This document shows, piece by piece, positions 3,001 through 38,993 of a stretch of DNA of 38,993 nt. Both the position numbers and the translations under genes were made by a program. The first letter of the stretch is position 1. Each line of letters opens with the position of its first letter. Location: contig JAYWIR010000123.1 in assembly GCA_036172245.1 (NCBI GenBank), forward strand, positions 62,001 through 100,993. Reading direction: 5' to 3'. The DNA comes from Raillietiella orientalis. Its lineage: Eukaryota. The notes under the pieces were generated by a model, which had not been told where the DNA came from, did no database searches, and saw only the letters and a list, made by a program, of their open reading frames with translations.

Positions 3001-6000
3001 GATAAAATACACAGTTCAGGTGGTTCATCTGTACAGCTAAGTTCGTTCTCCTATATATCGCATGCAAGCTTTGCGTATGCGTGTAGTGCGGGTAAGAGGA
3101 GCCCCGTCTCAAAAATGCACCTCTGGATTTCTATCATCTTGTTCCTTGCCAGTCCCATTTCCTTTTTCAGAGTCTGCCATCTTGTTGCTTCTTGAGACAG
3201 GTCCAGTCGTGAAGATCCGTGTCCACGTCACCCTATTCTTTCCAAATCTCTTCTGTTTGGTTGCCCGTAAAGTATTCTATCCTGGAAATACTTCGCCTTT
3301 CTCCGTAGTAGAACACCCGGAGGTCATCTTGGATGTCTGGAGGCAGCTCACTCCTCCCGAACGTCGTTTTAAACGCTAAGGTATTGACGGAGTCGTTTCC
3401 GTAGCGATTGGGAACTTTCTGGAGAGCATCGGTGTCTCGATCGTCTTCACGTTTGACATGATGAAGGTGTTTCTTGTTCATCCTGGACCACGCGTTGTTC
3501 CTGTCGCTTTTTTACAATTCGCGTATGCTGTAAAATCCTTTCCCCCACCATCTCGATGTACTTAAGCACGCGATAGTGATGATGGTAGCCATCGCGTCTC
3601 CGTTGATCAAATTTTCTCAAGGTAAATCCAGGCCACTGTCACATCCAGCTTCTCGTGTTACTAGGAATGGGGAGCTGCCAGGGAATTACAAAGATGAATT
3701 TTAGCTTCCAGAGTTCCTTGCTTCGATACAGGAACTCTAGTTGGTGCTTCTGCTCCAGCGCGTATTTCTATCTCTGTGTCGCGTCGATAATGATCCATCC
3801 TCTTTCTCGTCTGATTTGAGTCGTAGTCAGGCTCTAGGCTTGTTCAACAACGAGAAAGCTCTGTGAGATGCTCATAGACAGTCCTCGCATTTAACTGTGG
3901 TGTTCAGGGCTAACTAGGTGGTGAATCCAACAACTCAAACGGAAAACTTCCTCTATTCCATTTTCTCAACTACTGAAAAGAGGAAAACAAATGTAAGGCT
4001 GTGTATATAAATGGAGTAAAAGAAGCCTCTTTAAAAGTGTTCTTACGAGTATGCTGAGCGGTCCAGTTCTCCCGATATCTTCAGCACCATCTCGTGATAG
4101 GTAGGTGTCGAACACCTGATTGTCGGTGAAGCCCAGCCATGGTCTTCATCGTCGTAACGGCTGTACTCGATGATGGTAGACTGACCCCACTTGAATTGTC
4201 CGACATTTAGCCTCCGGCTACCATTCGACCGGAGCAATGAGCAGCGGCATGGTTTCACTCAAGGGTTGTTTCAGATCTTTGTCAACCACTCGGTTCCGGT
4301 TTGCCAATTATCGTTTTATCCTCGGCGTAACATTTACCTTTAAAAAACATGGAAACTCCTTTATAATTGACGTTGCAAGACTTGCACATTCAAACGCAAG
4401 GAAAACGTGTTCACGGATGCAGGGAAAAAGGAAGAAGGAAAGTATCCAATTCTAATCCACACCATCAAGCAGTACGGCAAAGCTGCCATCGTTCAAGCTC
4501 TCATCCTGTAATCCTTAGGATCGTGCGATCCCAAGAAATAGAGCGCATTACGACTACTAGGAATTAAAGAGAACAACGGAAAAAACTTGAGGAAGCTATG
4601 TGTTTCCTGCTGCATTAGGGCAAGCAGGGATATTTAATGGAATCACGGACTGTTCATCCACCTGACGATGAGGGCGACCCCATGCTTTACATTATAGAGC
4701 GACCACAATCCCAAGACCAGTCATTACGAAGTAAACATCAGATCGTCAATCATATTCGAAATGCTGGAACAGCAGGCAGAGCCAGCGGGAACGTTTTTGC
4801 AGTTGTTACCAAATTTAATTCAATAAAAAAAGATTGTTATCCATTAGGTAACTTCAGTCAGATCACCACCTATTGGCATGAGTTTCTTCCTGTTTCCGTA
4901 AAGAATAAGGGTAATCGCTCTTCGCGGATGCACACTGTCAGTTGGTAGAATAGTCGGAGGAAGGCGTTAACAAATCGCTGTTAGTAAGGGTTGGGCACAC
5001 TATCAGAGCTCGCAGTCGCATTTTTGCAAAGTTCCACGGAAGGAGATAGAACTTCTACAGCGGAGATTTTTTCGCCGAGCAATCTCATTTGATGTTCCTT
5101 AATTCATCGGCTCAGGTGGCGAAAAAGGAAGAAAAATACACAAAAAAAACAAGAAAAACGCCTAGGGGACATTGTTTATGGGAAGGGAAATGATGACTGT
5201 GCGTCGAGGGGAGGCCTCTGCATCTGGTTCCGGATGCGAACAAGTGCTGGCGAAATTTTCCTTAGCCGGCGCCAACGGGAAGCCTTCTCCATGGAGATGA
5301 CCACCCAGTGGATGGCATTCCGACTGCTGTGGCCTCTTATCGACGCGTTCCACTTGTCCAATATTCCTTGTATGCAGCCGAGAACTGCAACATATGCGGC
5401 ACCTGGTAGGGAGTTCTGCATCAAGAGCCAAAGGAAAATGTTTTAGGGTCGCTCACCGCAACATTTATGGCCGAAGAGAGTCGATCCCACGTTCGGCGGA
5501 GGGCAACACATTCGATGAGTAAGTGGGGGAAGGTCTCCCTTTTCCCACACCCTGTACAATGAGCATCCAATCTCTCTAATGTCCAGTGAGACAGGCGTGC
5601 TCTGCTCAAAAGTGCCCAATGGAGCACAAGCAGCGCGGTCTTTTGCCAATCCAAAGGGAGGGTGCCACTGTCCCAAGACGCCGGGGGCCACTTCACCTCC
5701 TCCGGAGCCATGTCGAGCAGCTCGCCCCAGCACACAATTCCATTTGGCGGGACACTCGGGGCTGTAGCGTTCGCTAGTTCCCGGAACGTCCACGCCTTCA
5801 TTGGTTTTTTCCTGCCTCCGATGAGGCAGGACACTTCGAAACAAGCGTCCTCTTGGCTGTCCCTGACTTTTATAAGGAAGAGCAGGACGGGGACAAGGGG
5901 AGTGAATGCGGCCTACAAAAGCTTTTGTGGGTCTGATACGATCTCTCGGAGGGGCTGGCCAGCGTTCCTGCCTCGATGAAAGCGACGGAATTCCACCTCG

Positions 6001-6342
6001 CTGGAGCCGCTGATTCTTGCTCACGCGGAAACGGACTCTTGGAGCCAGATAGTCCAGTTTGCGGGGATACAGGAGATCTACGGGTTTCTCCTCACAAGGG
6101 CCACCAATTCCCGTAGCTGCGAATCACAATGGTACAATCTACCGTCGTTGGCTACGAGGACTGCAGTCAGTCCATCGCAGCCGGTTGCCCTATGAGCGAG
6201 GAGTCGTATGGGCGCACACCATGGTGCTGTCCAATATTTTGCCGCAAAGGCAAGTTTTCTTAGTTGGAGCTGAGGCTCCATGCGCTCCAACGTCAGGAGA
6301 CCAAGTCCACCGTCCCTCCGTGGAGCGCACATATCTTTTAGT

Positions 6343-6628
6343 TTGTCACCCGGATATGCCGGGCATTCATTAATCTAATCCTTACAGAATCAGTTAATAA
6401 ATTCTTTCAAAAGTTTGTTGTGGGGAAACACTTGGTTTTCCAAGCTTGGTTGACGTGTCGGTTGCCGGTGCATATGCCGGTTAGGTCCATTACCGAGGCG
6501 CAAACAACCGAGGGAAAACTAGAACAAACAGAAACAAAAAGAGAAATAACGGGGAGCAAAACAGTTATATAAGAGAGTGGAGGGGGCAGGGCAGGGATCA
6601 CTGGGCGCCTGGGTCGCTCCTCTACATC
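6343..6628 (-). mobile_element. 286-bp 5'-truncated LINE copy (last ORF2 codons plus complete 3' UTR) with 13-bp TSD
   Basis: CATATCTTTTAGT is duplicated at 6330-6342 and 6629-6641. Removing the insert restores RVRLKDMCAPRRDGG. Insert has TGATCCCTGCCC, a U-rich tract and the terminal CCCGGCATATCCGGGTGACAA. Confidence 0.92.
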
Positions 6629-7236
6629 CATATCTTTTAGTCGGACGCGGGACCTCTGGTTTCCCCAAAGGGCTTTCCTGATGAAACCCCTTCTCCGTGT
6701 CCTAATTTGGGGAGGGAGGCGCACACAAAAAGTAGAGGGTGAAGGAGAGGTCCACAAAGGCGTTCCACAGCGCGGCCCGTAACCACAAGTAGAACTTGCC
6801 GTCCCTGAACGGGCCGATCGCCAACTGCACCTTTGGAGATGGTCAGACCAGGCTTCTGCAGCGCAGAAGTCCCCAAACGGCACGCCAGGGTACTTGATGT
6901 ACCTGCCCGTGGGGATCCCCGAGCGGATCCAGTCCGGCCCTCCTGCCCGCGACGAGTCAAAAAAGATGATCGGCCATTTCGTCCTGTTCACCTCGAGGCA
7001 TGTCCCGCGGCGCAGCAACTCGACGGATTCTTCGAGCGCCGATGCCTGGGAGGACGCGGCTAGAAGGAGTAGAAGGTCAACCGCATAGGCCGACACGGCA
7101 GGCGTGCCGGAACACGAGCTGGGCACAGTTGCCAAAGTCTAACTGTATGATCTAAGAACAACTCAAAGTAGATGCTGAAGAGTAGGGGGCTGGGGCTGTC
7201 TCCCTGCCGGATGCCGCGACCAACAGCCACGTCGTG

Positions 7237-7330
7237 GTTCTTCGAGCTTGGCTGCAGTATCGCTGCAGCCACTGACATTTTATTGTGGAGTTTATTTTTA
7301 AATAAACGTCCTGGAGAAATCCGGGTTAAA
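7237..7330 (+). mobile_element. ~94-bp extreme 3' end of a LINE, inserted antisense into the RT of S1 at the RKSFD codons, with an adjacent host deletion
   Basis: Hairpin TGGCTGCAG-TATCG-CTGCAGCCA (7249-7271), AATAAA at 7301, then CCTGG-AGAAAT-CCGGG-TTAAA. Immediately followed by ATCGAAAGATTTACG (antisense of RKSFD). Host RT between KSFD and HDVAVGRG is missing. Confidence 0.8.
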
Positions 7331-7371
7331 ATCGAAAGATTTACGCATATCGACTGCGATCGCAAAGACTC

Positions 7372-8356
7372 ATTTTTTGGCATTCCTTGCCGACACCACG
7401 CGCACAGGTGCTTGTGGGCACACCTTCTGCGTGTGCCCCATTGTCCCGCATACCTGGTACTGTACGTTGGGGCACCTCCTATTGAGGTGTCCCGACGTGT
7501 TGCAGAAGCCACAGTATTTGAGCTTCCCCACGTACCAGAGGTCGACGCTTTCTCCGCCGACCACCAGTTTGTGGGGAAGGGTAGAGCCCTTCTGAACGGT
7601 TACACGGGCAGCCGTGAGTCCGCACTGAACTGTGATATAGTCCTCGAAAGGACTAGGCTTGGTCCATACTGCATGTACCGTGCCTTCTTTTCCCAATGCG
7701 GCGCGTAATTGTTCATTCCGCATCCGCGCGGTAACTCCTAAAAGGTGGACCACCATACTGTGGTCCTCCTTAATACGAAGGAGCCTGCGTGTCCCCAACA
7801 CCACGGGGCTTTTGAGAAGACGTTGGGCAGATCTGCGTGTTTGCAGATCACCTCTACGTACTGCCCCCCGCTAGGAATGGTCTTAGCGCAGAGCTCCTCC
7901 TCTTTAACATCGAGAGCGCGCATCCCCTTCGAATAGGCGCGCGCACTCTCAGAAGAATACAAATTTCCTACCTTGTAGAATAGTGATGGGTTATACCGCT
8001 CTTCTACATAGGCAGATAATTCCGCCGCGGCTACAGGCGATGCCGCCGACACGATGGCGCTCCACGCCCGCGCTGCAGCGGGGACCGGTTGTGTGGGGGC
8101 GGACGCCCCCACCTCCTTCGCCACTGAAGGCGACGTTGCCGCCGCCCCCTGGCACTCCAACTTTTCTAGAGGCGACGTTGCCGCCGCCACCTGGCACTCC
8201 ATTTCTTCAGGAGGCGACGTTGCCACCGCCCCCTGACACGCATTGGTGGTAGTGTCAGGCATTGCTGCCCAATCGACCACCACTACACACGAAGCCTACA
8301 CCTAGGGACAATTCCCGGCACGAGGAGCACCGAGAAAACACGTCCGCTCTAACCGA
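7372..8356 (-). mobile_element. Element G: 5' UTR plus ORF1 (frameshifted, ATG ~8262, truncated after the CCHC knuckles)
   Basis: MPDTTT..., ARAWSAIV, SGGQYVEVICK, LPHKLVVGGESVDLWYVGKLKYCGFCNTSGHLNRRC. 5' motif AGAGCGGACGTGTTTTCTCG at 8331-8350. 5' end abuts the RKAFD codons of element F. Confidence 0.9.
8128..8238 (-). repeat. 42-bp coding tandem repeat (~2.6 copies; CQGAxATSPxEEME) in the ORF1 N-terminus of G
   Basis: GGCGACGTTGCC recurs at 8129, 8171 and 8213. Confidence 0.9.
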
Positions 8357-10521
8357 CGTAAAGCCTTCGATTGCGTCTACTAGGAGCTCCTCCTGGAGAT
8401 CCTCGAACGCTTGGAATTTCCGGCCGTCTTCCTGGCATACCTGCGCTCCTGCTGGCGCTTCGCGTTCATCAATATTAATTTCAGCGGCCGGCACGTGTTG
8501 GACGTGCCGGTTGGTCGTGGCATCCGGCAGGGTGACAGCCTCAGCCCCCTGCTCTTCAGCATCTACTTTGAGGTGGTGCTGAGAGCATACAGGGAAACTT
8601 TAGCATCCCTAGCGAGCTCATGTCCTGACACGCCTGACGTGTCGACCTATGCCGGCGACCTGCTGCTTCTGCTGCCCGGATCCACTCCGGCATCGTAGCT
8701 TGAAGATTTTTTTGAGTTGCTGAACCGCAGGACGGGCTTCGAGGTAAGAAGGGCGAAGTCGTCCATCATTTATTCGGACTCGTCGCGGGCAGGACGATCG
8801 GACTGCATCCGCTTGGGGATCCCCAGGGACGGTTACTTAAAGAATCTGGGCGTTCCGTTGGGGGACTTCTGCGCTGCAGAAGCCTGGTCCGACCGTCTCC
8901 AAAAGGTGGAGTTGGCGATCGGCCTGTTCCGGAACGGCAAGTTTTACTTGCAGGAACGGGCCACGGTATGGAACGCTTTTGCGGCCAACTTTCTCCGCCC
9001 TTTACTTTTCGTATGCCCCATACCTCCACAAATTCGTAAAAGGACAAGGGGCCTCATTAGAAAAGCCTTCAAGGGCAATCGGAGGCTTCACGTACGTCTT
9101 GAAGATCTGTGCGCTCAGCGCAGGGACGGTGGTCTGGGTCTCCTGACGCAGGAGCGCATGGAGCGACAGCTGCAATTCCGTAAACTTGCCCTTGTGGCAA
9201 AGTACTGGACCGCACCCTGGTATGCACCTTCAAGACTTCTGGCTCACAGGGCATCCGGCTGCCATGGATTGACCTCAATCCTAGTAGCCAACGACCGCAG
9301 ACTTAATCACTGTGGTTTTCAGCTGCGGGACTTGGTTGCCCTGTTCAGAGACAATCCGTGGATCTCCTGCAACCCTGCTGACTGGACAACCTGGCTCCAG
9401 GAATCCGTTCCCGCATGTGCTAAAATCAACGGCCCCAGCGATGAGGACTTCTCCTGCCTCCGTAGAGGCAGGCACGCTCGTCAGCCACTGCTGGAGATCG
9501 TCAGCAACCCACGGAAGCTTCTGTGGGCCTCCTTTACCCCCTTTGCTCCAGTGCTGCCCTCCCTCAGGGAAGTTCGGAACAGCCAGCAGGAGGCATCGTG
9601 GGAAGTGTCCTGCCTCATCGGAGGTAGGAAAAAATTATTGAAGGCCCGGACGTCCCAGGAAGTAGCGGCCGCTAGTACTCCAATTGTCTTGCCGAATGGA
9701 CTTACACGCTGAGGCGCGCTGCTCGAAGTACCTCCGGAGGAGGTGAAGTGTCCTGCGGCGTCGTGAGATAACAACACCCTTCCCCTGCAGTGGCAGGAGA
9801 CGGCGTTGCTTCTGCTCCATTGGGGACTTTTAAGCAGAGCGCGCTTGTCTCACTGGACATCGGGGAGTGTGAATGCTAAGTGCACAGACTGTGGGGAAAG
9901 AGATACCTTTTCTCACTTGATCATTGAGTGCGTTCTTCTTTGCGATATGTGGGACCGACTCTCGTTGATCTTGAACATTCCGCGGGGCGACCCGAAGAAC
10001 ATCTTTCGACTCCTGATGCGGGACGCCTTGCCAGCTTCCAAGTGTGTAGCAGTGCTCTGTTGCATACGCGGAATACTGGAGAAGTGGACCGCGTCAAGGA
10101 GAGGACATGCCAATCTGAATGTCATCCACTGGGCAACCATCTCCTTGAAGAAGGCCTGCCGTTGGCGCCGACTTGGAAAACATTTACAGGCACTCGTCCG
10201 CATCCGTGACCGGATGCAGAGGCCTCCTCACGGCGTACCATGATTCCTTCCCTTCCCTCTTCCACCCGGAGAACATTACCCCCCAGGCATTTTCTTTTTT
10301 TGTTTGTTTACTTTTTTCCCGCCCCTTCGCTAGTGTGGAGGACCTTATCGGCCTTCGGGTCGGTAAGGACAAGTGCTTCAAGACAGTCGGGCCACGTTTC
10401 CAGACTGAAGAAAGGAAAAAAAAAAAAAAACACTTTATTTAACAAATTAAGACTTTATCATAGAATTTTTTCTAATTGCACAAATTTTAGTAATGCATGC
10501 CCCGACTCACCCGGGTGAAAA
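8357..10521 (+). mobile_element. Element F: ORF2 3' half (RT from RKAFD, zf-RVT), 3' UTR and terminus; degraded
   Basis: RKAFDCV, GRGIRQGDSLSP, TYAGDLLLLL, RRDGGLG, CTDCGERDTFSHLIIEC, stop at ~10243. Terminus CCCGACTCACCCGGGTGAAAA at 10501-10521. Confidence 0.9.
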
Positions 10522-10702
10522 ACCTGCGCTGGAGTAAAGTGCTCCTGGTCTTCTTCGTCCAGTAAGCAGGCATACTTGGATTGCTAGGCCTGCCTCTCTG
10601 CTCCAGCCTTGAACTCTGCCAGGCGACTGACGTTGGGCTTGTTAAAGAACGACGGGCGTGCGGATAGCTCCTGTCGTTCCTCACCCCATCCCCGAAGACC
10701 GG
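10522..10702 (-). pseudogene. Fragment M: EN-RT linker of an older minus-strand element, sandwiched between two antisense insertions
   Basis: Reverse complement translates (with a frameshift) as PVFGDGVRNDRSYPHARR..KPNVSRLAEFKAGAERQA*QS..LLDEEDQEHFTPAQ, homologous to GFGEGPRNERCYLQARR..RRLAEYRAGAERQAWQS in element A. Confidence 0.85.
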
Positions 10703-12719
10703 CCTCGAAAAACCTTTCACCACCGGCGAAATTCTTGCCGGTATCAGAAGGCTCAAGAGACGTAAGGCTCCAGGGGAGGACGGCTTGCCCGCGAAGTTCT
10801 TCCGGTGCTTCGCGGCAGAGCTGGCACTTCTGGTTCTCGAGTTGACAAGGCTAATCCGAGAAGAAGGCGATGTTCCCGCCACGTTTCGGTCAGCCAGGGT
10901 GAGGCTGATTTCGAAGGGAGCAGAACTCAGGAAACTTAGCAACTGGTGTCCGATCACGATTGTGAACACGGACGCCAAGTTGATTGCCGGGCTGTGACCG
11001 GGATAGGTGTCCAATTCCATGATTAGTCCGGAGAAGACCTACGCTGTTCCCGGGCGAAGTATGGAGGACAACCTCTTCTTCGCGAGCACATGGTGTCAAG
11101 TGCAGCGGACTGAGAAGGAAGTGAACGGGAAAATTTGCAACCCCAGTTTGGGACCGTCAGTAGGACAGGGAAGGGACATCCGGGCAGGGAAGAGGGCCCT
11201 AGTGATCGCGGTCGATCTCCAAAAGGCGTTCGACTGCGTGGACCAGGAGCTTCTGTTGGAGCTCCTGGGTCGTATGGGCCTCAAAACCACCTTGATAACC
11301 GACCTGCGCTCCTGCTGGCGACATGCGATTGTTACCGTCTCTTTTAGCAGTCAGAAGGTGTATAACTTGCTGGTGTGACGGGGCATAGGGCAGGGCGATA
11401 GTCTCAGTCCCCGGCTCTTTAGCACCTACTTTGAATTGGTGCTGAGAGCGTACAGGGCAACTGTGCCCCCTTGCTGAGCTCGTGCTTCGGCACGGCCGCC
11501 GTAGCAGCGTACGCCGACGATCTTCTACTCATGTTACCTATGTCCACCCCGGCGAAGGCGGTCGGGGATTTCTTCGATCTGCTTAGCCGCGGGACAGGAC
11601 TACAGGTGAACCAAGCGAAGACGACGGTGGTGCCAGTAGATGCGCCGTGGTCAGGTCAGCAGGATTGGGTCCGTTTGAAGATCCCCATGACGAGGTACGT
11701 CAAGTACCTTGGTGTGCCGTTTGCGGATTACTCCTCTGCGGAATAGTGGTCCGGCTGCCTCCGAAAAGTCGAGTCGGCAATCGGCCCGTTCCTGGAAGTC
11801 AAGTTTCACTTGCAGTTACGGGCCGTGGTTTGAAACTCCTTCACCGCCCCTATCCTCGGTCCCTTGCTTTTTGTTTGCCCCTTCCCCGTTGAAGTCAAGA
11901 AGAGGACGAAGGACTTCCTCTATATTGCCCTTTTGGGCAATGTGAATCCTTGAGTCCCTTTCAGGGACTTATGCGCTCCGCTTCGGGATGGTGGTCTTGG
12001 CCTCCTAAAGCTGGAGCGCTTGGAGGTACAGCTGCGATGGCGCACCCTCGCTATCGCAGCGAAGTCGTGGAGCACCTCTTCCTGCGTTCCGGCCTGCCTA
12101 CTCGCCAGGCGTGTGTGGAGGTACGAAGAACTCGCATCTTTTCTTCTGTTCCCTGGCCGGAAGATCAGAAGATGCGGCCTACTGCTCGGGCGCATGGGAA
12201 CCCTGGCAAAGAACAGCTGGATGGTTTGCAGCCCTGCCAAATTCTCCGCCTGGCTGGAGGAAACCGCTGGCACCTGGGCTGCTATTAACCTGCGGAGTGA
12301 TGAATCTTGCAAGCGCCTGCGCTGCAGCATATACGCTTGCCGCACTCTGGAAGAAATACTGGAGTTTCCCGCGAGCAACACTTGGGCCGATACGACACCC
12401 CTTGCTACGGCGATGCCCTTGCTGACGAAGGCGCTTCACGGCAGCCGGATGCGAAGGTTGCAATTCTCCTGCCGAATCGCAGGCAGGGAGAAGTTTATAA
12501 GCGGCTGGAAAACAGGAGAACTGGCGGACGCCACGACCACGAGCGTCCAGCCGCGTGGTATACTGAGAAGGGGCGAGCTGCTCGCCATCCCCAGGGATGA
12601 GGCGAAGTGGCCCCCGGCATGGAATGAATACAGGATCCTGACCCTTAAGTGGCAAGAGTCGATGCTGCTGCTGTTGCACTGGGGTTTACCCTGCAACGTG
12701 CGTCGCTTCCACTGGACGC
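10703..12719 (+). mobile_element. Element I: 5'-truncated B-family ORF2 (RT to start of zf region), degraded
   Basis: EKPFTTGEILAGI, KAPGEDG, DLQKAFD, AYADD, MSTPAKAVGDFFDLLSRGTG and GELADATTTSVQPRG closely match elements D and C. Confidence 0.9.
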
Positions 12720-12932
12720 CGCATCGCCATTTTCCCAGGATTAACACTAGGGGTCGTCAGTCGCAGTCATATTCGCGCGGCCTGTTGGAATGCCAAGGAG
12801 CTGCGCGACGACGAAAACAGGCGAGCTACAAAGAACACCCTGCGTGAGCTAGACCTGGCCCTGTTGCAGGAGGTCCATGTCATCACCGCGGAAGACGTCC
12901 AGGAGATCGAGTCGATCGCGGATGGTCGGCTC
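12714..12932 (+). mobile_element. Fragment I2: ORF1 end / ORF2 endonuclease start of a second B-family copy, fused to I
   Basis: GGACGCCGCATCGCCATTTTCCCAGGATTAACA matches the ORF1 end of B (38951-38983). Followed by IRAACWNAKELRDD..LRELDLALLQEVHVITAED. Confidence 0.85.
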
Positions 12933-15009
12933 TTGATGACCCAATTGCACCGGGGCGTTTATTAAAAAACTGTCAGGAAACAGAGTTCCTGGACAAGGAA
13001 AAACAAGAGACAAAGGGGGTGGGATCCCCGACACGCAGGTTGGTATGCCGAAAGTACGGAACAGGAGGGAAGAGAACAGAAATACACTCTAATGAAAAAA
13101 AAAAAAAGTATGGAGGGCAGCGGACAGGGGTGTTTGGTTTGGCCGTTCCTTCGTTTCAAAACTGGCGATGGATACCGATGATTTCTCTCCTCACGTCCTC
13201 TGACACATGGGCCCACTCGGCAGCCGACCACATGCTTGCCCTGGCTAATCCAATGGACTGACGATATATGGCCAGCTTCACCTACTCTCGGTGGGCCTTG
13301 TCGATGGCGCGGGTGCAACACACGGCTGCAACAACAGCACCTAGAGACAGGCCGCCTAGCGTGAAGAGACGGCGCATCAAGTCTCTCGCGGTGTCCGTCT
13401 GGTGCAGGAGAGATGGAGCCAGCCTCCGCCAAAGTCGTAGGAGGGCACCGCAGTCCAAGAGCAGGTGCAAGAGCGTTTCCACTTCCCTACACCGCTTGCA
13501 GTTTGGGGAGACAACTGCCCCGGAAACAAGGATCGTTCGCTGGTTGGAGTGAATACCTCAATGCACCAGCATGATGACGTCCTGTTTCCACGATAGGGGG
13601 AACACAGAAGTTTTTTTAAAAAGAGCAAGAAACTACAAGTTCTTCAAGGGGCACACTCAAGTGTTCACTCCACCGAAGAAGTCCCTGCGGGATGTGAAGA
13701 GGCGTGGAGGCATCTGCCAGCTCGCAAGTCCTCTAGACGCCAATAAGTCGCGTTGTTCCTGCAATGATGCAGGCGACCTCCCATCTCGCAGGTTCGCCGC
13801 TGTCATCTCTTGCCCTGAGGGCTGACAGCGCGTCGGCGAGGGGGGTGAGGGCCAGGCAAGTCTACTTCTCCTGGCTGTTGCAGACCTCATCCACTGTGCA
13901 GTACGGGGAGAGGTGAACGCAACAGAGTTCCAGGAGGGAAACATCTTGGTGCTTTGCCCAGCCGTGCATCGGTTTCTGCTGCATGCTTGAAAGTTCGTTG
14001 GGCAGAAGGAGATCCATTCCTGAGCTGCTAGGGGCCAGTAGAGGTGCTTCAACGGGAAACAAAAGTTCTTGTAGCGCGCTACGTATGCGGCCGCAGCGAA
14101 AGCATTCCATCGCTGCCGGTGCAGCGCCGCAGGAGAAGGCGCGCGGAAGCGCATCGAGGAGTGGACCAAGGGTTGGCGCAAAGGGCCAACATCCGAAGCT
14201 GCACCTTCAGATCGATTCTCTCCAGCATCAGGAAGCCTAAGCCAGCATCCCGACGCGGAGCCGCCAAGTCTGTGAGGCGGATCCTGGATCTCGCAGGTCC
14301 ACAAAGAGCGTTTCTCTACAGGCTGTGCGCCTGTAGCTTGGTCGAGTAGGAAGGCGGGCAAACAGGGGGCGCAAGAGGAAGGCAACGATTCTGTTCCATA
14401 TCGCGGCCCGCTACGACAGGAGGAACCTGCCATTGTGGAACGGGCTCAGAGTACTCGTAGCCTTTTGAAGGCAGTCCGACCACACTTCCTCTGGGCTGTT
14501 GTTACCCAGCGGAACGCCCAGATATTGGATGGACGAAGCGGTCAAGATACCCAGGCGGATCCAGTCGGACTGCCTATCCCACGCCGCACAAATAGGAACG
14601 ACCACGCTCTTGCTCCGGTTTAAGCTCATGCCCGCTCGCCGGTGAATCAGCTCGAAGAAATACTCAAGACTGGACTCCAGAGTGGTCATGGGTAAGAGGA
14701 GAAGCAGGTCATCAGCATAGGCCGCCACGGACGGCGTTCCTGGACAAGAGCTCGGCAGGCTGGACAGCGTGAGCCTGTACGCCATCAGCACCAACTCAAA
14801 GAAGATGTTGAAGAGCAACGGGCTTAAGCTGTCGCCCTGCCTGAAGCTTCGCGCACCGGTACGCCGTACTCGTGGCAGCTGTTGAAAGGCAAAGAAATGA
14901 GCGCGTGGCGAAAGCAAGCGCGCAAATACGCCACGAGGTGCACCGGGAAACCGAGGCATTCCAGGTGCTCCAGCAGAAGATCCTGATTTACGCAGTCGAA
15001 CGCCTTGCG
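12933..15009 (-). mobile_element. Element J: ORF2 3' half (RKAFD to zf-RVT) plus 3' UTR and terminus; degraded
   Basis: RKAFDCVNQDLLL, RQGDSLSP, AYADD, IQYLGVP, RRDAGLG, ETLLHLLLDC. Terminus AATAAACGCCCCGGTGCAATTGGGTCATCAA. Confidence 0.9.
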
Positions 15010-16161
15010 TGCTCCAAGGTAGACGTGTTTTCTCGGTGCTCCTTGTGCCAGGAAGTCTCCCCCAGTGGAAGCGTCGTGTGTTTCGGTGGTCGATCAGGCA
15101 GCGATGCCTGACGCGACCACCAGGGATGGCCAGGGAAAAGCGGCAACGCCGCCACCAGAGGCGATGGAGGTGGGGGCATCCGCCCCCACAGAATCGGTCC
15201 CCGCTGCAGCGCGGGCGTGGAGCGCCGTTGTGTGGGCGCCATCGCCTCTAGCCGCGGCGGAATTCTCGGCCTATGTAGAGGAGGGGTACAAACCCTCATT
15301 GTTCTACAACGTAAGCAACCTTTATTCTTTAGAGAGGGAGCACGCCTTTTCGAAGGGCATGAGCGCTCTCGATGTGAAGGAGGAGGAGCTAAGCGCTATG
15401 ACCACCCGCAGCGGGGGTCAGTACATTGAGGTCATCTGCAAACATGCAGAGCTGGCCCAACGACGAATTAAAACCTTCGTTGTGATGGGGACGCGCAGGC
15501 TCCTCTCCACTACGGCGGACCGCAGCATGGTGGTCCACCTGTTAGGCTTAACAGCGCGAATGCGCAAAGAAAAGGTTGGCGCCGCTCTGGAACTGTTCGG
15601 AACGGTCCACGCGCAGTGGACGAAAGTTAGTCCCTTCGAGGACTACACGGGGCTGCAACATGGTCTCACGGCTGCGCGCGTTACCGTTCGGGAGGGCTGC
15701 ACTCTTCCCCACAAACTGGTGGTCGAAGGCCGAACCGTCGACCTCTGGTATGTGGAGTAGCCGAAATACTGTGGCTTCTGCAATACGTCCGTCCACCTCA
15801 AAAAGGTGTCCCAACGTGCAGTGCTAAATATGCGGCACAATGGGTCACACGAGGGAGGTGTGCCCTAAAGAAGCAGTGCGGGTGGTTTCCAAGAGAAAGC
15901 TTAAAAACGCGCCCGGCTTCTGCAGAAAAGGCTGGAGGCGAAAGCTGCCGCGAAGGCTGTGCCACCCGCGCCCAACGCCCAGGCTGCACCCAAGACCCCG
16001 GCCAAGAACGCCGAACAAGTCGAGGGAACTAGCCAGGAGAATGGGTGGCAATTGGCAACGGCGAAAAAATCAAAGAAGAAGAGGAGATTAGAGAAAAAGC
16101 TCGCTTACCGCCAGAAAAAACAGCAGGCAAGCCAGCCGATAAAAAAATGCAGCGTTGTCGT
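15010..16161 (+). mobile_element. Element H (same family as G): 5' UTR plus ORF1 (ATG 15104, premature stops), cut off by element K
   Basis: 5' UTR GACGTGTTTTCTCGGTGCTCC shared with G. MPDATT..VGASAPTESVPAAARAWSAVV, RSGGQYIEVICK, LPHKL..LWYV, decayed CCHC knuckles, ending at IKKCSVVV. Confidence 0.9.
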
Positions 16162-21344: not shown

Positions 21345-22725
21345 CAAGCCGCCGCCGTACGAACGCCGATGCCGCGACAAAGTCGCGAACCCAGCGTGAG
21401 CGGCGACGACCGGGACTTCAACAAGGCGGCGGAAGAGTTGGCAGCCATGCTCCAGCAACCTCCCAAGGCCCAGAAGAAGGCCTTGAGGCGTCCGGCTGAG
21501 GCGAAAGGACCGGAGACTTCCGAGTCCGAAACCGAAGCCGGCAACGCTCCATCTGTCGCTCTCCCGATGCGCAAAGCGGGCCGCAAGGTAGGCAACCCGC
21601 GGCGCTCCGCACCTCCACCGGCGGAGGAGGAAATGCGGTCGGACCACGACGACGGGGACGCGATGTCAACGAGGTCTCGCGACTCCTCGCCGGAGACGTC
21701 CCTGGCTAAGCAGGATCCTCCAACCACCACCTCAACCACCGACGGACCGCCACCTTGCGAGGAACAGCACGTCGCAATGGAAACACAACTCCCGCCTGCT
21801 GAACAGCAGGCGGAGGACGGTAAGCAAGCGCAATAAACACATCACCGCGTGTACTCTCCTCCTGCCGGCGACTGCGCGTAATCTGTTGGAACGTCAACGG
21901 GCTGCGCGACGACGGCAAGAGGAGAGAAGTGGCCGCCAGCCTGCGGGACTTCGTTCTGGCGCTACTGCAGGAGACGCACGTGCTCCACGCAGGGGAGGCC
22001 CAAGAAATCGAACATATCGCAGGCGGGCGGCTCATATACGAGAACGGGATACCGCACTCGCGGTGTGGCTTTCATGCTGAAGCCAGCCGTCGTTAATGCG
22101 CTGCGCGACGAGCATTTCGACGGGGAAGGTCAAATCGGGCAGCTTGTTGCCAAGTGGTCCGACGCGATCGACCTCGTCGTGACCAACGTGTACGCGCCCG
22201 GCACGAGCCACAGGCGCGGGGAACGCACTGCGTTCTTCGAAGGCCTGCGGCGAGATTGGCTGGCCGAAGCAGGCATGCGAAAGGCGCCCCTCATTGCCGG
22301 GGACTTTAACGTCCGCCTGCTGGCAGGTGCGCCCGACATTCGCGCACACCTGGTCAACGAGATGTGCGCTGCCATGCACGCGCGCAACTTGTTGGCCGGT
22401 GACGCCGGGACGGAGACGAGGATCGACCACATGTTCCTCGAGAACCACCTGTGTTCGCGGGTGGCAAATCGAGGGGCAGTGCCATCCGAACTCTCCGACC
22501 ATCCCCGGCTCGTGCAAGATATACACCCGCGCGGTAGAGGTCCACCCTCCAAATTGTGGCGTTTGCCAGGGGACTGATTGCGCCTCGCAGGAGCAGCGCA
22601 ACATCTTCGCTCGTTCCTGCAAGGCTTCCATCTGCAGTCGCTCGCGGATTGGGACGACTTGAAGAGCTCAGTCCGCGAGTTCTGCGACCAGTTTCCCCTG
22701 AACCGTCTCCCTCCAGGTTTCGGCG
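21345..22725 (+). mobile_element. Fragment E: ORF1 C-terminus plus APE endonuclease up to the GFG linker
   Basis: DFNKAAEELAAML..RKAGRK (ORF1, stop 21836). CWNVNG, LLQETH, TNVYAPG, IAGDFN, RIDHMFL, SDHPR, FCDQFPLNRLPPGFG, then cut by the 3' end of D. Confidence 0.9.
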
Positions 22726-25724: not shown

Positions 25725-25741
25725 TGGAGATTCCGGAGCGT

Positions 25742-25760
25742 CGAGCGGACGTGTCTTTTC
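25742..25760 (+). promoter_or_regulatory. Conserved 5'-terminal motif GAGCGGACGTGY(Y)TTT(T)C, putative internal promoter or start element (also 8331-8350 minus, ~15018-15035, 34025-34043 minus, 37011-37029)
   Basis: Found at or within ~20 nt of the 5' junction of five copies from three divergent ORF1 types (degenerate in H). Function is inferred. Confidence 0.55.
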
Positions 25761-25823
25761 GTTGCTCCTGAGCTCCATTTCCGATGGTGCTTGTGCGTGG
25801 TGTGGGTGGAGGATTACGCAGCA

Positions 25824-27482
25824 ATGCCTGATACCACCACCGGTGAGGATCCGGGAGTGATGACCTCATTGCCCCCGGAGGAGATGGAGGTGGGGGCTCC
25901 CGCATCAGTGGAGGCTCCCGCCAGCACGGATGCGCCCCCGGCCCTACCCAGGGCTTGGAACGCCGTGGCTGCGGCACCTACGCCAGCGGCTATGGCGGAA
26001 ATGCGCGCTTACCTGGAGGAGGGGTATAACCCACCACTTCTATATAAGGTAGGCGGTTTATATTCTCCCGAGAACGCGCGCGCCTTTTCGCAGGCGATGC
26101 GCGCTCTCGGTGTACAAAAAGAGGAGCTTCTGGCTATGTCCGTCAGAAGCGGGGGTCAATTTGTGGAAGTTATCTGCAAGGAGGCAACTCTTGCTCAGAG
26201 ACTTCTGCGAACCCCCGTAATTATGGGCAGCCGGAGGCTTCTCCCCATTACTGAAGACCGGTCGGTGATCATTCACCTGACCGGTATCACGTTCCGGATG
26301 ACGAAGGAGTCCGTCCGGAACGAATTAGAAAAGTTTGCAACTGTGCACGCGCTGTGGGGAAAGCCTACTCCTTTTGTCGATTACGACGGGGTGCTTGGCG
26401 GCCTGGTTGCAGCGCGAGTGACGGTTCGCGAGGGATGTGAGTTTCCCCACAAACTCACCGTCAACGGTGAATCCGTTGACGTGTGGTACGTGGGGAAACC
26501 CAAGTTTTGCGGCTGCTGCAGCAGCTTTGGTCACCTTAAAATGAGGTGTCCGAGCGTGCAGTGCCAGCAATGCAAACAAGCGGGGCACACCCGTCTGGTG
26601 TGCTTCCAAAACACAGTCCGCGTCGTGTCCGCGAAAAACGCGAGAAAGCGCGCGGCTAAAAAAAGGAAGAAGCTGGCAGCTCGTGCTGCTGCTAAGGAGG
26701 TCACCTCCGTCACCAAGGCGAAGGCCAGCCCCGAGACTTCGGCGAAAGACGCCGAAAAGGTCGAGGGCGAGGGTCAAGAGCCATGGTGGCAGAATGTCGA
26801 CCCCAAGAAAAACTCCCATAAGAAGGGAAAGAACGTGGCGAAACGGAGCGAAACCGCTCTGCGCCGCGAAAAAATTAAAAGCTGCTGCGTCGTTGTAGAG
26901 CGGATTCCCGCCATCGACGAATGCGGCGCTAAAGAACTCGCTGCTGCCCCTGCTCAACCCTCCGTTGACAAAGTCAACAAGGAGGGGAGCGAGGCGGCGG
27001 CGTCCGTCATCGAGCCCACGCTCGATGACGTCGCCTTCGAGCGCGCCGCGGAGGAGCTGGCTGCTTCGCTGCAGCCGGTTGCCCCCAAGGCTGGCAAGAA
27101 GGCCGTCAGGCGTCCGGCTTCCCCTCAGGAGTCGGCCACTTCCGACCCCGAGGTGAAGGCCGGAAAAACAGCATCCATCTTCGCGGCACCCCGCAAAAAG
27201 GCAGGACGAAAGTCCACAATGCCCCGGAAGATCGTGTCCCCCGACGAAGGGGAAGAGATGGCTTCCGGTAGCGAGGGTGCCATGAGCGTGGGAAACTCCC
27301 GGGACCCGTCGCCCGAGAGAATTCCACGCTCGGACACGGAGGGGATGGTGAGGATGGAGGCCGAACAGGTACCCCAGGCGCCTGAAGAGGCCTCCGTTTT
27401 CGTTCCGATGGTCCTCGTACCGATGGACCTTTCGTACACCTGCCCCGCGGCAGGTGCCGCGACGCCACTTTCCCAGCCATAA
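25824..27482 (+). CDS. Element A ORF1, intact gag-like nucleic-acid-binding protein (~552 aa; RRM-like region, 2x CCHC, disordered basic/acidic tail)
   Basis: Open frame. ATG 25824 (MPDTTT) aligns with the starts of G and H. CGCCSSFGHLKMRC and CQQCKQAGHTRLVC. Confidence 0.9.
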   Translation: MPDTTTGEDPGVMTSLPPEEMEVGAPASVEAPASTDAPPALPRAWNAVAAAPTPAAMAEMRAYLEEGYNPPLLYKVGGLYSPENARAFSQAMRALGVQKEELLAMSVRSGGQFVEVICKEATLAQRLLRTPVIMGSRRLLPITEDRSVIIHLTGITFRMTKESVRNELEKFATVHALWGKPTPFVDYDGVLGGLVAARVTVREGCEFPHKLTVNGESVDVWYVGKPKFCGCCSSFGHLKMRCPSVQCQQCKQAGHTRLVCFQNTVRVVSAKNARKRAAKKRKKLAARAAAKEVTSVTKAKASPETSAKDAEKVEGEGQEPWWQNVDPKKNSHKKGKNVAKRSETALRREKIKSCCVVVERIPAIDECGAKELAAAPAQPSVDKVNKEGSEAAASVIEPTLDDVAFERAAEELAASLQPVAPKAGKKAVRRPASPQESATSDPEVKAGKTASIFAAPRKKAGRKSTMPRKIVSPDEGEEMASGSEGAMSVGNSRDPSPERIPRSDTEGMVRMEAEQVPQAPEEASVFVPMVLVPMDLSYTCPAAGAATPLSQP

Positions 27483-30400
27483 TGCCGGGAATCGCCTCTC
27501 GCCGTCATCTTCTGATCGCCTGTTGGAACGTGAACGGGCTAAGCGACGACGGCAAGAGGCGTGACGTGGCCGCCACCCTGGCATCCTTCGACCTGGTGCT
27601 GCTGCAGGAGATCCACGTGATCTCCGCAGATCAAGCCCGGGAGATCGAACGGATCTCGGGTGGGCGGCTGTTGTGGCGTTGCGGCACCGCGAAATCAAGC
27701 GGTGTCGCCTTCCGGCTTCGGCCAGCCATCGAGACCGCAATAAAGGACGTTCGGTTCGATGACGCAGGTCGCGTCGGTCAGCTGACTCTCAGCTGGTCCG
27801 ACTCTATCGACCTGGTCGTCACCAACCTATACGCTCCTAGCGGAAATAACGCGTTGAAGGCGAAGGCAAGAAGGGAATTCTACCTTGCCCTGAGACGCGA
27901 CTGGCTGACCGATGCAGGAGTTCGCAAAGCGCACCTGATCGCAGGTGATTTCAACCTGCGCCTGCTTTCAGGTGCGCCGGATACACTGAACGACCGCGTC
28001 AACAAGTTGTGCGCAGAAATGAACACGCGCAACTTGTTGGCCGGGGACACGGCCATGGAAAGCAGCATCGATCACGTGTACCTTGATCAGCACCTATGCT
28101 CTCGGGTGGGCAGGCGCGGCAAGGTACCATCCGAGCTGTCGGACCATGGTCGGATCATGTTCGAAGTGCGTCCGCGCGACAAGGGCCCCCCCTCGTCAGC
28201 GTGGCGTCTGCCAGGGGACTGGTTGAAGTTTCCCGACGCGGCGGAGCACCTCCGCGCGTTTATTCGGAGCTTCAGGATGCAGACACTTCAGGACTGGGAC
28301 CGCTTCAAGCGGTCGGTCCAGGAGTTCTGCGATCAGTTCCCCCTGCATCGCCTACCTGCGGGATTTGGGGAGGGGCCGCGTAACGAAAGGTGCTATCTTC
28401 AGGCCCGACGTTACGCAAGAACCCCCGACATGCGCAGGTTAGCAGAGTATCGAGCGGGAGCCGAGAGGCAAGCCTGGCAATCCGGGTCGGCCAGCTTGCT
28501 GGACGACCGGGGCCGGGAGCACTCGGTTCCCGCTCAGAAACGCGGGATAGTCAGGAAATTTTACTCCTCCCTGTACGCCAGGGCGCCTCCGGAGAGAGAC
28601 GTCTCACGACTTCTGCTTCCGGAAGGTGCTCCAGCGATCGGGGAGGAGGAGAAAAGAAGCCTCGACGAGCCTTTCACGATGGACGAGATCCTCTCGGCCA
28701 TCGGAAAGCTCAAGAGGCGGAAGGCTCCAGGGGGGACGGCCTGCCCGCGGAGTTTTACCAAACTTTCGCGGCTGAGCTTACTCCCCTGGTACATCAGCTC
28801 ACCTTGCTGATCCGTGAAACAGGTGACGTTCCCACCTCGTTTCGTTCAGCAAAGGTGCGGCTCCTCCCGAAGGGAGGAGACCTAAGGAGCATGAACAACA
28901 GGCGTCCCATTACAATAGTGAATGCGGACGCCAAGTTGATAGCCAAGATGGAGGCAGAGCGCCTGGGACGGGTCGCCAACATCTTCATCAGCCCGGAACA
29001 GACTTATGCTGTTCCCGGGCGGAGCATGGAGGCGAACCTGTTCCACGCTTCCACATGGTTAGAGCTCCAACAAGGAAGGGGCTTATTGAGCAGCCGGAAT
29101 TCCGGTGCGTCCGTTGGCGGGAGACGGAACGGTTGGGTGGGGAAGGGAGCCCTTGCGGTCGCTGTCGACTTGCGTAAAGAATTCGACAGCGTCGACCAGA
29201 ATCTCCTGCTGGAGCTTCTGGAACGCTTGGGCTTCCCGGCCTCTTTGTTGGCCTACCTGCGCTCCAGCTGGCGCGACGCGCTCATTAATGTTCTTTTCAG
29301 CGGGCAGACCGTGCACGGAGTACCGGTGCGACGCGGCATACGGCAGGGAGACAGCCTGAGCCCCGTGCTCTTTAGCGCCTTTTTCGAATTAATGCTGAGA
29401 GCGTATAGGGAGACTCTTGCGCACCTGCCGTGCGATTGCCCCGGTACGCCTGCGGTTTCGGCGTACGCGGACGACCTTCTGCTCCTGCTGCCTATGTCCA
29501 CCCCGGCTTCGGCGGTCGAGGAGTTCTTCGACCTGCAGAGTCCGGGAACAGGACTGACGGTGAACAGGGCGAAGTCGTCCGTAATGCCAGTCGGGGCGGC
29601 GTGGGCAGGGCAGCAGGACTGGGTCCGTTTGGAAATCCCCACGGTGAGGTACTTCAATTACCTTGGTGTGCCGTTGGGGGATTACTCCTCTGCGGAAGCG
29701 TGGTCCGGCTGCCTTCAGAAGGCTCAGGAGGGGATCGGCCCGTTCCAGGACGGCAGGTTCTTCCTGCATGAACGGGCCGCGGCGTGGAACGCGTTTGCGG
29801 CCCCCCTCCTTCGCCCCTTGCTTTTTGTTTGCCCCCCCTCAGCGGAGTCAAAGAAGAGGACGAAGGACCTCCTGAGGATCGCCCTTTCGGGCAGAGGGAG
29901 GCCCCGAGTCCGTCTATCGGACTTGTGCGCTCCTCGTCGGGATGGTGGTCTGGGCCTCCTGACGTTGAAGCGGCTGGAGCTACAGCTCCAGTTCCGAGTT
30001 GTTGCCTTTATGGCAGAAAATTGGTGCACCCCTTGGTGCCTCCCTGCACGTCTTCTCGTCGAGCGGGCCACCGGCAATGCAAGACTCTCGTCCTACTTTG
30101 CACTCCGAAGCCCCATCTGCCACTGCGGACTTCAACTTCGGAGTGCGGCCAAGCTCGTGAAGAACAACTCGGCGCGGATCCTCGTACGCCCCGCGAACGG
30201 TCCTGCCTGGTTGCAGGAAACCGTCCGCACGTGGGCGATGATTCAGCAGCAGAGCCCGAAACACGAGCGAATAGCTCTGTTCGGGCCGCATGCCCGCCGC
30301 ACGCTCCGAGAAATCATCGAGAATCCCCGAAGAAGAGCGTGAACACAAAGAATCTCCCTTGCTGCGGTACTGCCTACCCTACGGGAACATCTGGGCAGCG

Positions 30401-31061
30401 ACGTCGCGGCACAATGGGAGGTTACTGTCAAGATCGCCAGCAGGGCAAAGAAGATCGGGGATTGGAGAACGGGTCAGCTCAATAACGCTGCGACCCCGAG
30501 GACCACCCCAAATATACTGTTGCGCTGAAGAGAGCTACTAGATGTTCCAGAGGAACATCTCGAGTGGCCTTCGGTGCTCATAGACTCGCGCACCCTCCCC
30601 ATGAAGTGGCAACAGTCGGCACTGATGGTGTTGCATTGGGGGCTTCCTTGCAACGCCCGCCGACAGCACTGGACTTGGGGGGGTGTCAACCCTAATTGTG
30701 TCAGGTGCGGGGAGAGGGAATACCTCACCACCTGTTAGTGGATTGTGTTGCCCTCCGTCCCTTGTGGGAACGCTTTGCCGCAGCCCTGGGGATCCCCGGA
30801 GGCAACTCCAGAGACGCTTTGCGCCCCCACTTCGTCCGTGACGCCCTGCCTCCAGAGGCCTCGCTTGCAGCCCTGGGCTGCCTACGCGAGATCGTCGTGG
30901 CATGGAGCAAAGCGACGGGAGGATCCAGCGACAGGGATGCCAACGTGTATGTTGCCCGTTTCTACTGGATGTCGACGCGATGGCCCCATCTGGAACCACA
31001 CAAGCAGAAACAGCTTGCCGGCATCCTCCAGAGGATGACGGACCCTCCCAGCAGACTGTGA
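27482..31061 (+). pseudogene. Element A ORF2 (APE endonuclease, RT, zf-RVT), frameshifted near 28730, ~30340 and ~30720
   Basis: ATG overlaps the ORF1 stop (TAATG). WNVNG, LLQEIH, NLYAP, GDFN, IDHVY, SDH; DLRKEFD, GIRQGDSLSP, AYADD; CVRCGERE..HHLLVDC. Confidence 0.93.
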
Positions 31062-31244
31062 TCCCTTCCCGCTCCCTCCCTGATTTTTGTTTTTTTTTTG
31101 TTTTCTTTTTGTTTCGTTCCCCCTCCCCTCTGCTGCCGAGGTCGACCGCGCCGGTCTGCGCACCAGTAGCCCGGCAAGCTATATCTTTCCAGGGCGTGGC
31201 TGGACTACTGGTCCAGTCACAGATTGTATAGGTTTATTCGTGAG

Positions 31245-31274
31245 AACAAACGTCCCGGCGCACCCAGGTTTCAA
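31245..31274 (+). other. Conserved 3'-terminal module: poly(A)-signal-like hexamer + CCCGG-N5/6-CCGGG hairpin + ~6-nt tail (9 copies in the window)
   Basis: Copies at 6343-6372(-), 7301-7330(+), 10491-10521(+), 12933-12962(-), 16162-16191(-), 21315-21344(+), 22726-22756(-), 31245-31274(+), 34063-34092(-). Two of them directly abut verified TSDs. Confidence 0.88.
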
Positions 31275-32077
31275 TGGAGATTCCGGAGCGTGACGCCTCT
31301 CAGGTAATCGCGAAGGTGTTCACTCGCACCTGAGATTAGCGTCCAGTCCCCCAACAGACACCAATCCCTGGATGGCGGTCCTTTGTCGCGAGGACGCATC
31401 TCGAAAATTAGCCGGGAATGGTCCGACAACGTCGACACAACCCTCCCCCGTTTGCCGACGCGTGAACACAGGACAGCGTCGAGGAAGACGTGGTCGATGC
31501 TGTGGACCATTCCCCTCTCACCCGTGAACAAGTTGCGCGCACGCATGGCGGCGCACAACTCGTTCATCGCGTTCACTTGTGTTTCCGGCTCACCTGTTAG
31601 CAGGCGGAGATTGAAATCTCCCGCTATCAGGTGAGCTTTTCGCACATTGGTATCCGCCAGCCAGTCGCGCTTCAGGGTTTCCAGCAGCCTGGTGCGGTCG
31701 CGGTACCCCTGTTTGCCGCTGGGGCCATACACGTTTGTGACGATTAGGTCGATCGAGTCGGACCAGCTGAGAATCAGCTGACCGATCCGACCGTCGTCAT
31801 CAAACCGCACGCCCTTTACGGCAGCGTCGATGACCGGCTTCACGAAGAACGCGACCCCGCAGGTGTTGCGGAGGCCGCATCGCCAATACAACCGACCTCC
31901 CGCGATCGTCACGATTTCCTGGGCGTCTGCCGCGGTGATCACGTGGATCTCCTGCAGCAGCGCCAGGTCGAGCTCACGCAGGGTGTCGGCCGTATCTCGA
32001 CTGTTGCCGTTGTCGCGCAGCCCGTTGACGTTCCAAATGGCCGCGCGAATCCCACGGCGACTGGCGAGCCCAGGTGT
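31275..32077 (-). pseudogene. D ORF2 N-terminal APE endonuclease (open frame, no AUG start), separated from its RT by element A
   Basis: TPGLASRRGIRAAIWNVNGLRD..LLQEIH..TNVYGPS..IAGDFN..SIDHVFL..SDHSR. Confidence 0.92.
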
Positions 32078-33950: not shown

Positions 33951-34062
33951 CGGACACCGACGATGTGCACGCACAAATCACTCAAGAAGAAAAAACACTC
34001 GCTTTGCCACGCAGGCGGAGCGCAGGAAAAGCACGTCCGCTCTCCACAGCGGGGATTCGGCG

Positions 34063-37001: not shown

Positions 37002-37103
37002 CCGCTGTGGAGAGCGGACGTGCTTTTCCTGCGCTCCGCCTGCGTGGCAAAGCGAGTGTTTTTTCTTCTTGAGTGATATGTGCGTGCACATCGTCGTTTT
37101 CCG

Positions 37104-38981: not shown

Positions 38982-38993
38982 CACCTGGGCTCG

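Follow-up and report, generated by a model that had tools for sequence, protein, structure and literature searches.

In a 38,993-nt stretch of a Raillietiella orientalis contig (JAYWIR010000123.1, positions 62,001 to 100,993 of the forward strand, assembly GCA_036172245.1), referred to below as the window, the codons for the reverse transcriptase (RT) motif RKAFD are a real and recurrent site at which retrotransposons that lack long terminal repeats (non-LTR retrotransposons) have integrated in antisense orientation into copies of their own group. Three independent events are found there, namely a short insert in the RT copy S1, visible by its 3′ junction, and the pairs G/F and H/J, visible by their 5′ junctions; the site belongs to a set of at least two hot spots and is not exclusive. 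The elements are L1-like long interspersed nuclear elements (LINEs) with a first open reading frame (ORF1), an apurinic (APE) endonuclease and an RT, and form a self-nesting cluster from about position 5114 onwards. The APE-type endonuclease (EN) of this group probably has preferred cleavage sites within the coding sequence of the group itself. A first-pass annotation of the window had proposed RKAFD as a specific target; the site stands as a recurrent hot spot but not as a dedicated one, since 3 of about 14 insertion events took place there, compared with 4 at a second motif, GFG, and 7 elsewhere.

Positions within elements are expressed on a ruler provided by the best preserved copy, K, with position 1 at 25748 of the window. 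On this ruler, RKAFD occupies 3426–3440 and the GFG motif, located between EN and RT, occupies about 2613–2621. The reference copy and the parts that surround RKAFD are the following, in window coordinates.

25742..31274, plus strand: K, full-length reference copy with ORF1, APE EN and RT.
5114..7372, minus strand: S1, RT copy from about 27 nt upstream of RKSFD toward its own 3′ end.
7237..7330, plus strand: short insert (‘94 bp’), a 5′-truncated 3′ terminus ending in ...AAATAAACGTCCTGGAGAAATCCGGGTTAAA.
7331..7345, minus strand: RKSFD codons of S1, ATCGAAAGATTTACG, the antisense of CGT AAA TCT TTC GAT, adjoining the 3′ end of the short insert.
7373..8350, minus strand: G, 5′ untranslated region (UTR) and first ~300 ORF1 codons (reference 1 to ~900).
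8351..8356: G filler, six nt reading TCGGTT in G orientation, between host F and the 5′ end of G.
8357..10522, plus strand: F, RT copy beginning exactly at the R codon of RKAFD (8357–8371).
12933..15009, minus strand: J, RT copy beginning exactly at the R codon of RKAFD (15009–14995).
15010..15021: H filler, twelve nt TGCTCCAAGGTA between host J and the 21-mer of H described below.
15022..16160, plus strand: H, initial part, comprising the 5′ UTR and ORF1 as far as about reference 1150.
21345..22725, plus strand: H, continued, remaining ORF1 and EN up to the GFG codons, the site of the 3′ end of copy Q.

The central evidence comes from an alignment of eight RT copies, with no interruption across the RKAFD region in five of them (K, I, Q, R and T). 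F and J share one nucleotide position, directly 5′ of the R codon, at which their homology ends, and that of S1 ends directly 3′ of the D codon (GAT), 15 nt from the F/J breakpoint. Two 5′ junctions and one 3′ junction thus bracket the same 15 nt in three hosts, exactly as the first-pass annotation had claimed, and the three 15-mers on which it relied do encode RKSFD or RKAFD: besides that of S1, they are CGTAAAGCCTTCGAT at 8357–8371 in F and GTCGAACGCCTTGCG at 14995–15009 in J, the latter being the antisense of CGC AAG GCG TTC GAC. At the 3′ junction, the terminus of the short insert (...CCGGGTTAAA) abuts ATCGAAAGATTTACG at 7330/7331 and, because it matches the eight other 3′ termini of the window, 7330|7331 is a genuine junction of target-primed reverse transcription (TPRT). 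The insert, whose family had been called unknown, is accordingly a 3′ terminus of the same LINE group; at its 5′ side, about 100 nt of S1 are absent, as judged by comparison of S1 with F.

At the two 5′ junctions, a 21-mer (GACGTGTTTTCTCGGTGCTCC) is found exactly at 8344–8324 (minus strand) and 15022–15042 (plus strand), with a three-mismatch copy at 25748 (plus strand) and no match in any of 100 shuffles. G and H belong to one subfamily, as had been supposed, with 78.7% identity over 776 nt in addition to the identical 21-mer. They had also been described as starting at the 15-mer: the host boundary is exact, but the 21-mer does not abut it and lies 12 nt away in both cases, the separating nucleotides being TCGGTTAGAGCG at 8356–8345 and TGCTCCAAGGTA at 15010–15021. 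The inner six nucleotides of the G spacer, AGAGCG, fit the 5′ consensus of the family (K, N and P), so that the true filler in G is about 6 nt long. The filler of G (TCGGT..) and that of H (TGCTCC..) are each repeated 13–21 nt within the element's own 5′ UTR (..CTCGGTGCTCC..), a post hoc observation according to which they may be short template-jump copies.

The 15-mers of F and J differ at 4 of 15 positions, every one of them a synonymous third position, and each continues as a separate RT copy for about 2.1 kb, up to a 3′ terminus that is particular to that copy and lies in a different host. This identifies the 15 nt as host sequence, and the idea that they might be a fixed part of the G/H elements, put forward by the first-pass annotation as the finding that would overturn its proposal, is rejected. 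The hairpin terminus of F at 10522 corresponds to an antisense insertion in fragment X (10523–10700, minus strand), and that of J at 12933 to an antisense insertion in the EN fragment V (12718–12932, plus strand). Together with the unrelated spacers of G and H, these different hosts imply independent hits, and the three RKAFD junctions are separate events. If instead one ancestral junction had been copied, by segmental duplication or composite retrotransposition, G/F and H/J would go back to the same event, and the number of real hits would fall to one or two. A single high-scoring segment pair in BLAST does run through both junctions (8244–8593 versus 15122–14774, 72.7% identity), and the spacer has 12 nt in each; yet the spacers match at only 3 of 12 positions where the surrounding DNA is 72–79% identical, and the termini of F and J lie in different hosts at different positions (about 2790 in X and about 1915 in V), which makes such copying very improbable.

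The second hot spot, at the GFG codons, has the same character and is documented by four stretches of host sequence.

22716..22725, minus strand: first GFG hit, CGCCGAAACC, following the 3′ terminus of Q, antisense of the GFG codons of H.
34053..34062, minus strand: CGCCGAATCC, between the 3′ terminus of R (34064) and the 5′ end of N (34052).
36992..37001, plus strand: CGCCGAATCC, antisense of the GFG codons of R, directly before the 5′ end of P (37002).
10691..10700, plus strand: CCCCGAAGAC, antisense of the (V)FG codons of X, directly before the 5′-truncated I (~10701).

At the three 5′ junctions, the host stops at the same nucleotide, after CGCCGAATCC (N and P) or CCCCGAAGAC (I, where the X/I junction is 10700/10701 and the string CGGCGAAATT is located at 10724), and in total two 3′ and three 5′ junctions occupy fixed nucleotides of the GFG site. 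The sequence at 34053–34062 represents two hits at one site of H, in tandem (R then N), and the N/Q insertion in H has a 10-bp target-site duplication (TSD) with 9 of 10 positions matching. Including these, about 14 insertion events were counted by manual reading of the alignments, with uncertain assignments for V into I, M/T and G/S1.

RKAFD events, antisense: short insert in S1; G beside F; H beside J.
GFG events, antisense: N/Q into H; R likewise into H at this site, forming a tandem with N; P into R; I into X.
Events elsewhere, antisense: K, F, J and T.
Events elsewhere, sense: M, V and a 290-bp fragment in S1.

Eleven of the 14 events are antisense and 3 are sense, and all 7 events at RKAFD and GFG are antisense. 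With a crude, uniform and post hoc model (14 events, 2 × 5533 site-orientations, 5-nt tolerance), one triple coincidence as at RKAFD is expected with a chance of about 7e-5 and a quadruple as at GFG with a chance of about 9e-8, so that a chance origin of the RKAFD triple is unlikely. The coincidence of junctions could also be imagined as an artefact of assembly joining repeats at conserved motifs, and the highly repetitive nature of the region speaks for this. Mis-joins between repeats would, however, be collinear and not inverted with unique spacers, and the perfect TSDs of K and of the 290-bp insert argue for accurate assembly; in view also of the low chance estimate, an origin by accident or artefact is hardly credible.

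Target preference by the EN would operate at RKAFD through ordinary TPRT with a 15-nt stagger. The host coding strand would be nicked right after the D codon (...TTCGAY|), and the host 3′-OH at ...TTCGAY-3′ would prime reverse transcription of the incoming RNA, which ends in a 3′ hairpin and a few A residues, leaving the guest antisense to the host. Indeed, the sense strand of the guest is continuous with the antisense strand of the host, for which reason the primer would be the host coding strand. The cut in the second strand would fall 15 nt from the first, directly in front of the R codon, and the 5′ end of the guest would be joined to the host antisense strand ending in ...TTRCG-3′, with the addition of a few extra nucleotides. 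We infer these nick positions, together with a 15-bp TSD at RKAFD and the EN as the source of specificity, from the positions of the junctions. A stagger of 15 nt falls within the range of 10–17 nt displayed by complete insertions in the window, and TSDs of 12–17 bp are made by the group: the simple antisense insertion of K lies between the two copies of a perfect 17-bp TSD (TGGAGATTCCGGAGCGT, at 25725–25741 and 31275–31291), and the insert listed below between those of a perfect 12-bp TSD (CTAAAAGATATG, at 6640–6629 and 6341–6330).

6342..6628, minus strand: 290-bp insert in S1, ~290 bp, 5′-truncated, sense orientation.

The 15-bp TSD implied by the first-pass annotation agrees in geometry with nicks 15 nt apart, but no insertion in the window is flanked by the 15-mer on both sides.

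A different origin of the inverted junctions would be the formation of head-to-head dimers in one event of double or ‘twin’ priming, where both cut strands prime and the cDNAs are joined 5′ to 5′. F and J would then be 5′-truncated arms rather than hosts, and their ends at the R codon would reflect an RT stop or a break in the RNA. In L1 twin priming, an inverted 5′ segment lies beside a direct 3′ segment, with the 5′ end of the element at the inversion point, and the same inverted/direct arrangement is encountered at G/F and H/J. Exactly the shape of a dimer is seen in the T/M pair, S1 lacks its last ~200 nt as would be expected for an internally primed arm, and the 5′ half of F is absent from the window. 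But classical twin priming yields contiguous inverted and direct segments, whereas here G (1–900) is paired with F, and H (1 to at least 2621) with J, both F and J starting at 3426; the parts belong to separately terminated copies, and their breakpoint is shared with an independent 3′ junction. Dimer formation would leave unexplained why the 3′ junction of the short insert lies exactly 15 nt from the ends of F and J and why 3′ junctions pile up at GFG, and the spacer nucleotides are unfit for joining by annealing. It is thus an unlikely account of RKAFD, and insertion at preferred cleavage sites is retained as the probable one.

The T/M pair itself (16161–21344) interrupts H. It consists of T (from 16161, minus strand, 5′-truncated at about 2800) and M (to 21344, plus strand, with a full 5′ end) in head-to-head arrangement; their 3′ termini (16161 and 21344) both adjoin consecutive parts of H's ORF1, and their inner ends join at a 7-nt tandem duplication, AAACGGC AAACGGC (18861–18874). 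This pair may be a double-primed inverted dimer.

Several observations weigh against site preference as the explanation. No element carries the RKAFD 15-mer on both sides, the 3′ end of H being located beyond the window, and G comprises only reference 1–900, fused to an S1 whose own 3′ end is missing. The 5′ half expected for F as a host is found nowhere in the window, 7 of the 14 events, or half, took place at other sites and three are in sense orientation. The head-to-head T and M, with both 3′ ends facing host H, imply that inverted junctions can form without simple nesting. The only motif common to both hot spots is TTCG, located 2–3 nt before the presumed nick, and since TTCGR occurs 17 times in the sense strand of K, what is recognized must in reality be larger or different in kind. 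Finally, everything rests on one window.

The G/F case is the most demanding in this respect. G lacks a 3′ end of its own; its in-frame fusion with S1 lies about 36 nt upstream of RKSFD, where a short segment is similar to ORF1 (...SAKNARK...) as well as to RT (...AGKGA...). Were G and S1 parts of a single deleted element lodged in F, the 3′ end of that element and the 5′ half of F would be expected on the left; instead, S1 ends at 5113 with its final ~200 nt absent, and unrelated AT-rich DNA begins there. Left of 5113, nothing LINE-like is found: the alignment score for the missing 3′ end of S1 is 31 versus a shuffle mean of 30.9, and a search for an RKAFD-like 15-mer gave nothing better than 15-mers with 3–4 mismatches. 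The interpretation of G and S1 as a single element in F therefore needs one further deletion or insertion. Window positions 1–5113 are AT-rich (40–46% GC), with no open reading frame (ORF) above 148 codons and without similarity to LINEs; this DNA, which truncates the 3′ end of S1, may mark where the cluster ends or may have been inserted later. As for the fusion itself (7360–7380), reference ~905 is joined to ~3390, with TGA where other copies have GGA. M is likewise internally deleted (~20019–20033), with 1–1171 joined to 4218–end. Both G+S1 and M keep the N-terminus of ORF1 and a 3′ part, and may be non-autonomous derivatives.

The 5′ ends of G/H type are found at RKAFD (2 of 2) and those of N/P type at GFG (2 of 2), which hints at subfamily-specific site preference from 2 + 2 cases. 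On this basis, it is conceivable, although as a tentative extension that we consider less probable than not by some distance, that subfamilies have evolved different EN specificities, each antisense to conserved codons of ORF2, with G/H directed to RKAFD (RT motif A) and N/P to GFG (between EN and RT), so that each functional copy would become the next landing pad in a self-perpetuating nested cluster. The first-pass annotation had likened the choice of RKAFD, as a motif that competitors would not easily mutate, to the choice of conserved sites by homing elements; as hosts and guests are of one group at 70–80% identity, the situation looks like self-nesting rather than competition. N and P (32065–34062 versus 36992–38993) form an inverted pair of 5′ halves flanking R; with 93.5% identity, this pair is much more recent than the remainder of the nest (70–80%).

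The assignment to the L1-like LINEs is based on several features. From 5114 to its end, the window is GC-rich and consists almost wholly of fragments of one non-LTR retrotransposon group, whose copies are 70–80% identical with the single exception of the 93.5% pair. In K, ORF1 has 619 codons and no Pfam match, and ORF2 encodes an N-terminal endonuclease of the apurinic type (PF03372, 5.9e-14, in 27386–28810) followed by an RT (PF00078, 7.6e-19, in 28384–30342). For a zinc knuckle in ORF1, zf-CCHC scores 23.2 bits (cut-off 20.8) in P, and for the C-terminal domain of plant-type L1, zf-RVT in M reaches 27.0 bits, marginally below its cut-off of 27.5. Also typical of L1-like LINEs are the TSDs (17 bp for K and 12 bp for the 290-bp insert) and the 5′ truncation of several copies. 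Among protein homologues, one is 67% identical and lies on a 2.9-kb metagenome contig; the remaining ones (10 in one search and 17 in another) are at most 30% identical, and those with names are plant and animal L1-like proteins at 24–30% identity, in what is a ranking by similarity. Relatives on metagenome contigs (eight loci, all 23–34% identical) are too distant for comparison of junctions. The G/H 21-mer had no match in a motif scan of a genome-contig collection, and the 3′ motif none in a scan of a viral-contig collection. Occurrences of a looser 3′ motif in two contigs of metagenome-assembled genomes were discarded as chance matches, blastn and tblastn having found no similarity of these contigs to the window.

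Element ends are well defined. The 5′ ends have (G)AGCGGACGTG in common, and the nine 3′ termini (7330, 10522, 21344 and 31274 on the plus strand; 34064, 22726, 16161, 12933 and 6343 on the minus strand) consist of an AT-rich stretch, AAACGYCCCGG-loop-CCGGGT, 2–4 variable nt and 1–5 A. None of the nine has the poly(A) tail expected of an L1-like LINE, all ending in the hairpin, a few nucleotides and 1–5 A, and all nine are located within another copy. The terminal hairpin, CCCGG-loop-CCGGG, has five conserved pairs, with no compensatory changes across the nine sequences, and the AT-rich stretch that precedes it is AAUAAA-like. An A13 run at 10420–10432 was considered as the end of F and rejected, because it is internal and the canonical hairpin terminus is at 10522. 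The 5′ motif GAGCGGACGTG, used together with the 3′ hairpin, provides an annotation key with which the nest can be disassembled copy by copy.

Among known systems, the nearest in overall organization are the Zepp and Zepp-like (ZeppL) L1 LINEs of green algae, which, according to passages of Craig et al. (PMC8226300), form clusters by insertion into existing copies; nested Zepp clusters are also described by Blanc et al. 2012 (PMC3446292). The elements of the window are likewise of L1 type and clustered by self-insertion, a likeness that is weak when taken alone, as the window from 5114 is almost entirely LINE. Zepp is reported to build tandem arrays of 3′ ends (in the relevant passage of PMC8226300) and to carry an (A)n tail (footnote to Table 3 in Ohshima 2013, PMC3747384). 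In contrast, 11 of 14 events in the window are antisense and inside ORF1/ORF2, R–N is the only tandem, and the elements end without an (A)n tail in a hairpin and 1–5 A; these distinctions are drawn by description. No algal names appeared among the protein homologues returned.

Another parallel is offered by site-specific LINEs. R1 and R2 insert in ribosomal DNA (rDNA) and Tx1L in the Tx1D transposon, and target-specific TPRT is described for R2. Shared with these elements are junctions at fixed nucleotides in a conserved multicopy target, repeated hits and tandem re-use of a site (R and N at the GFG of H). They differ in being found almost only in their own target, whereas here one site receives 3 or 4 of 14 events (7 of 14 falling elsewhere), and in that the target here is coding sequence of the element's own group. 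The LINEs of the window are thus not strictly site-specific, although their junctions at the hot spots are fixed to the nucleotide. In a search of one open-access library, which does not include the primary description of Zepp, no account of LINEs inserting into the codons of an RT motif was found.

If the hot spots hold genome-wide, these elements would be LINEs that prefer, in antisense orientation, conserved codons of their own RT and linker. This would provide a mechanism at nucleotide level for the formation of nested LINE clusters, which constitute centromere-like regions in some algae, and would present a natural example of an endonuclease of APE type that recognizes a longer site. A further consequence would be an explanation of why a target cannot disappear for as long as the family remains active. 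Should the subfamily specificities be true as well, a self-perpetuating nest would exist in a poorly sampled eukaryotic lineage.

Two further junctions complete the picture of the nest. I ends at 12717/12718, before the C-terminal CCHC finger (about reference 4927), and V then begins at about 1700 in the same orientation, so that the junction reads as a sense-orientation insertion, with V starting near the beginning of ORF2. The 3′ junction of F in X (10523, reference ~2790) and the M/T junction (~18868, reference ~2800) are no more than about 10 nt apart in element coordinates, both antisense, and could represent a weak third cluster or chance (our own estimate being roughly 0.2).

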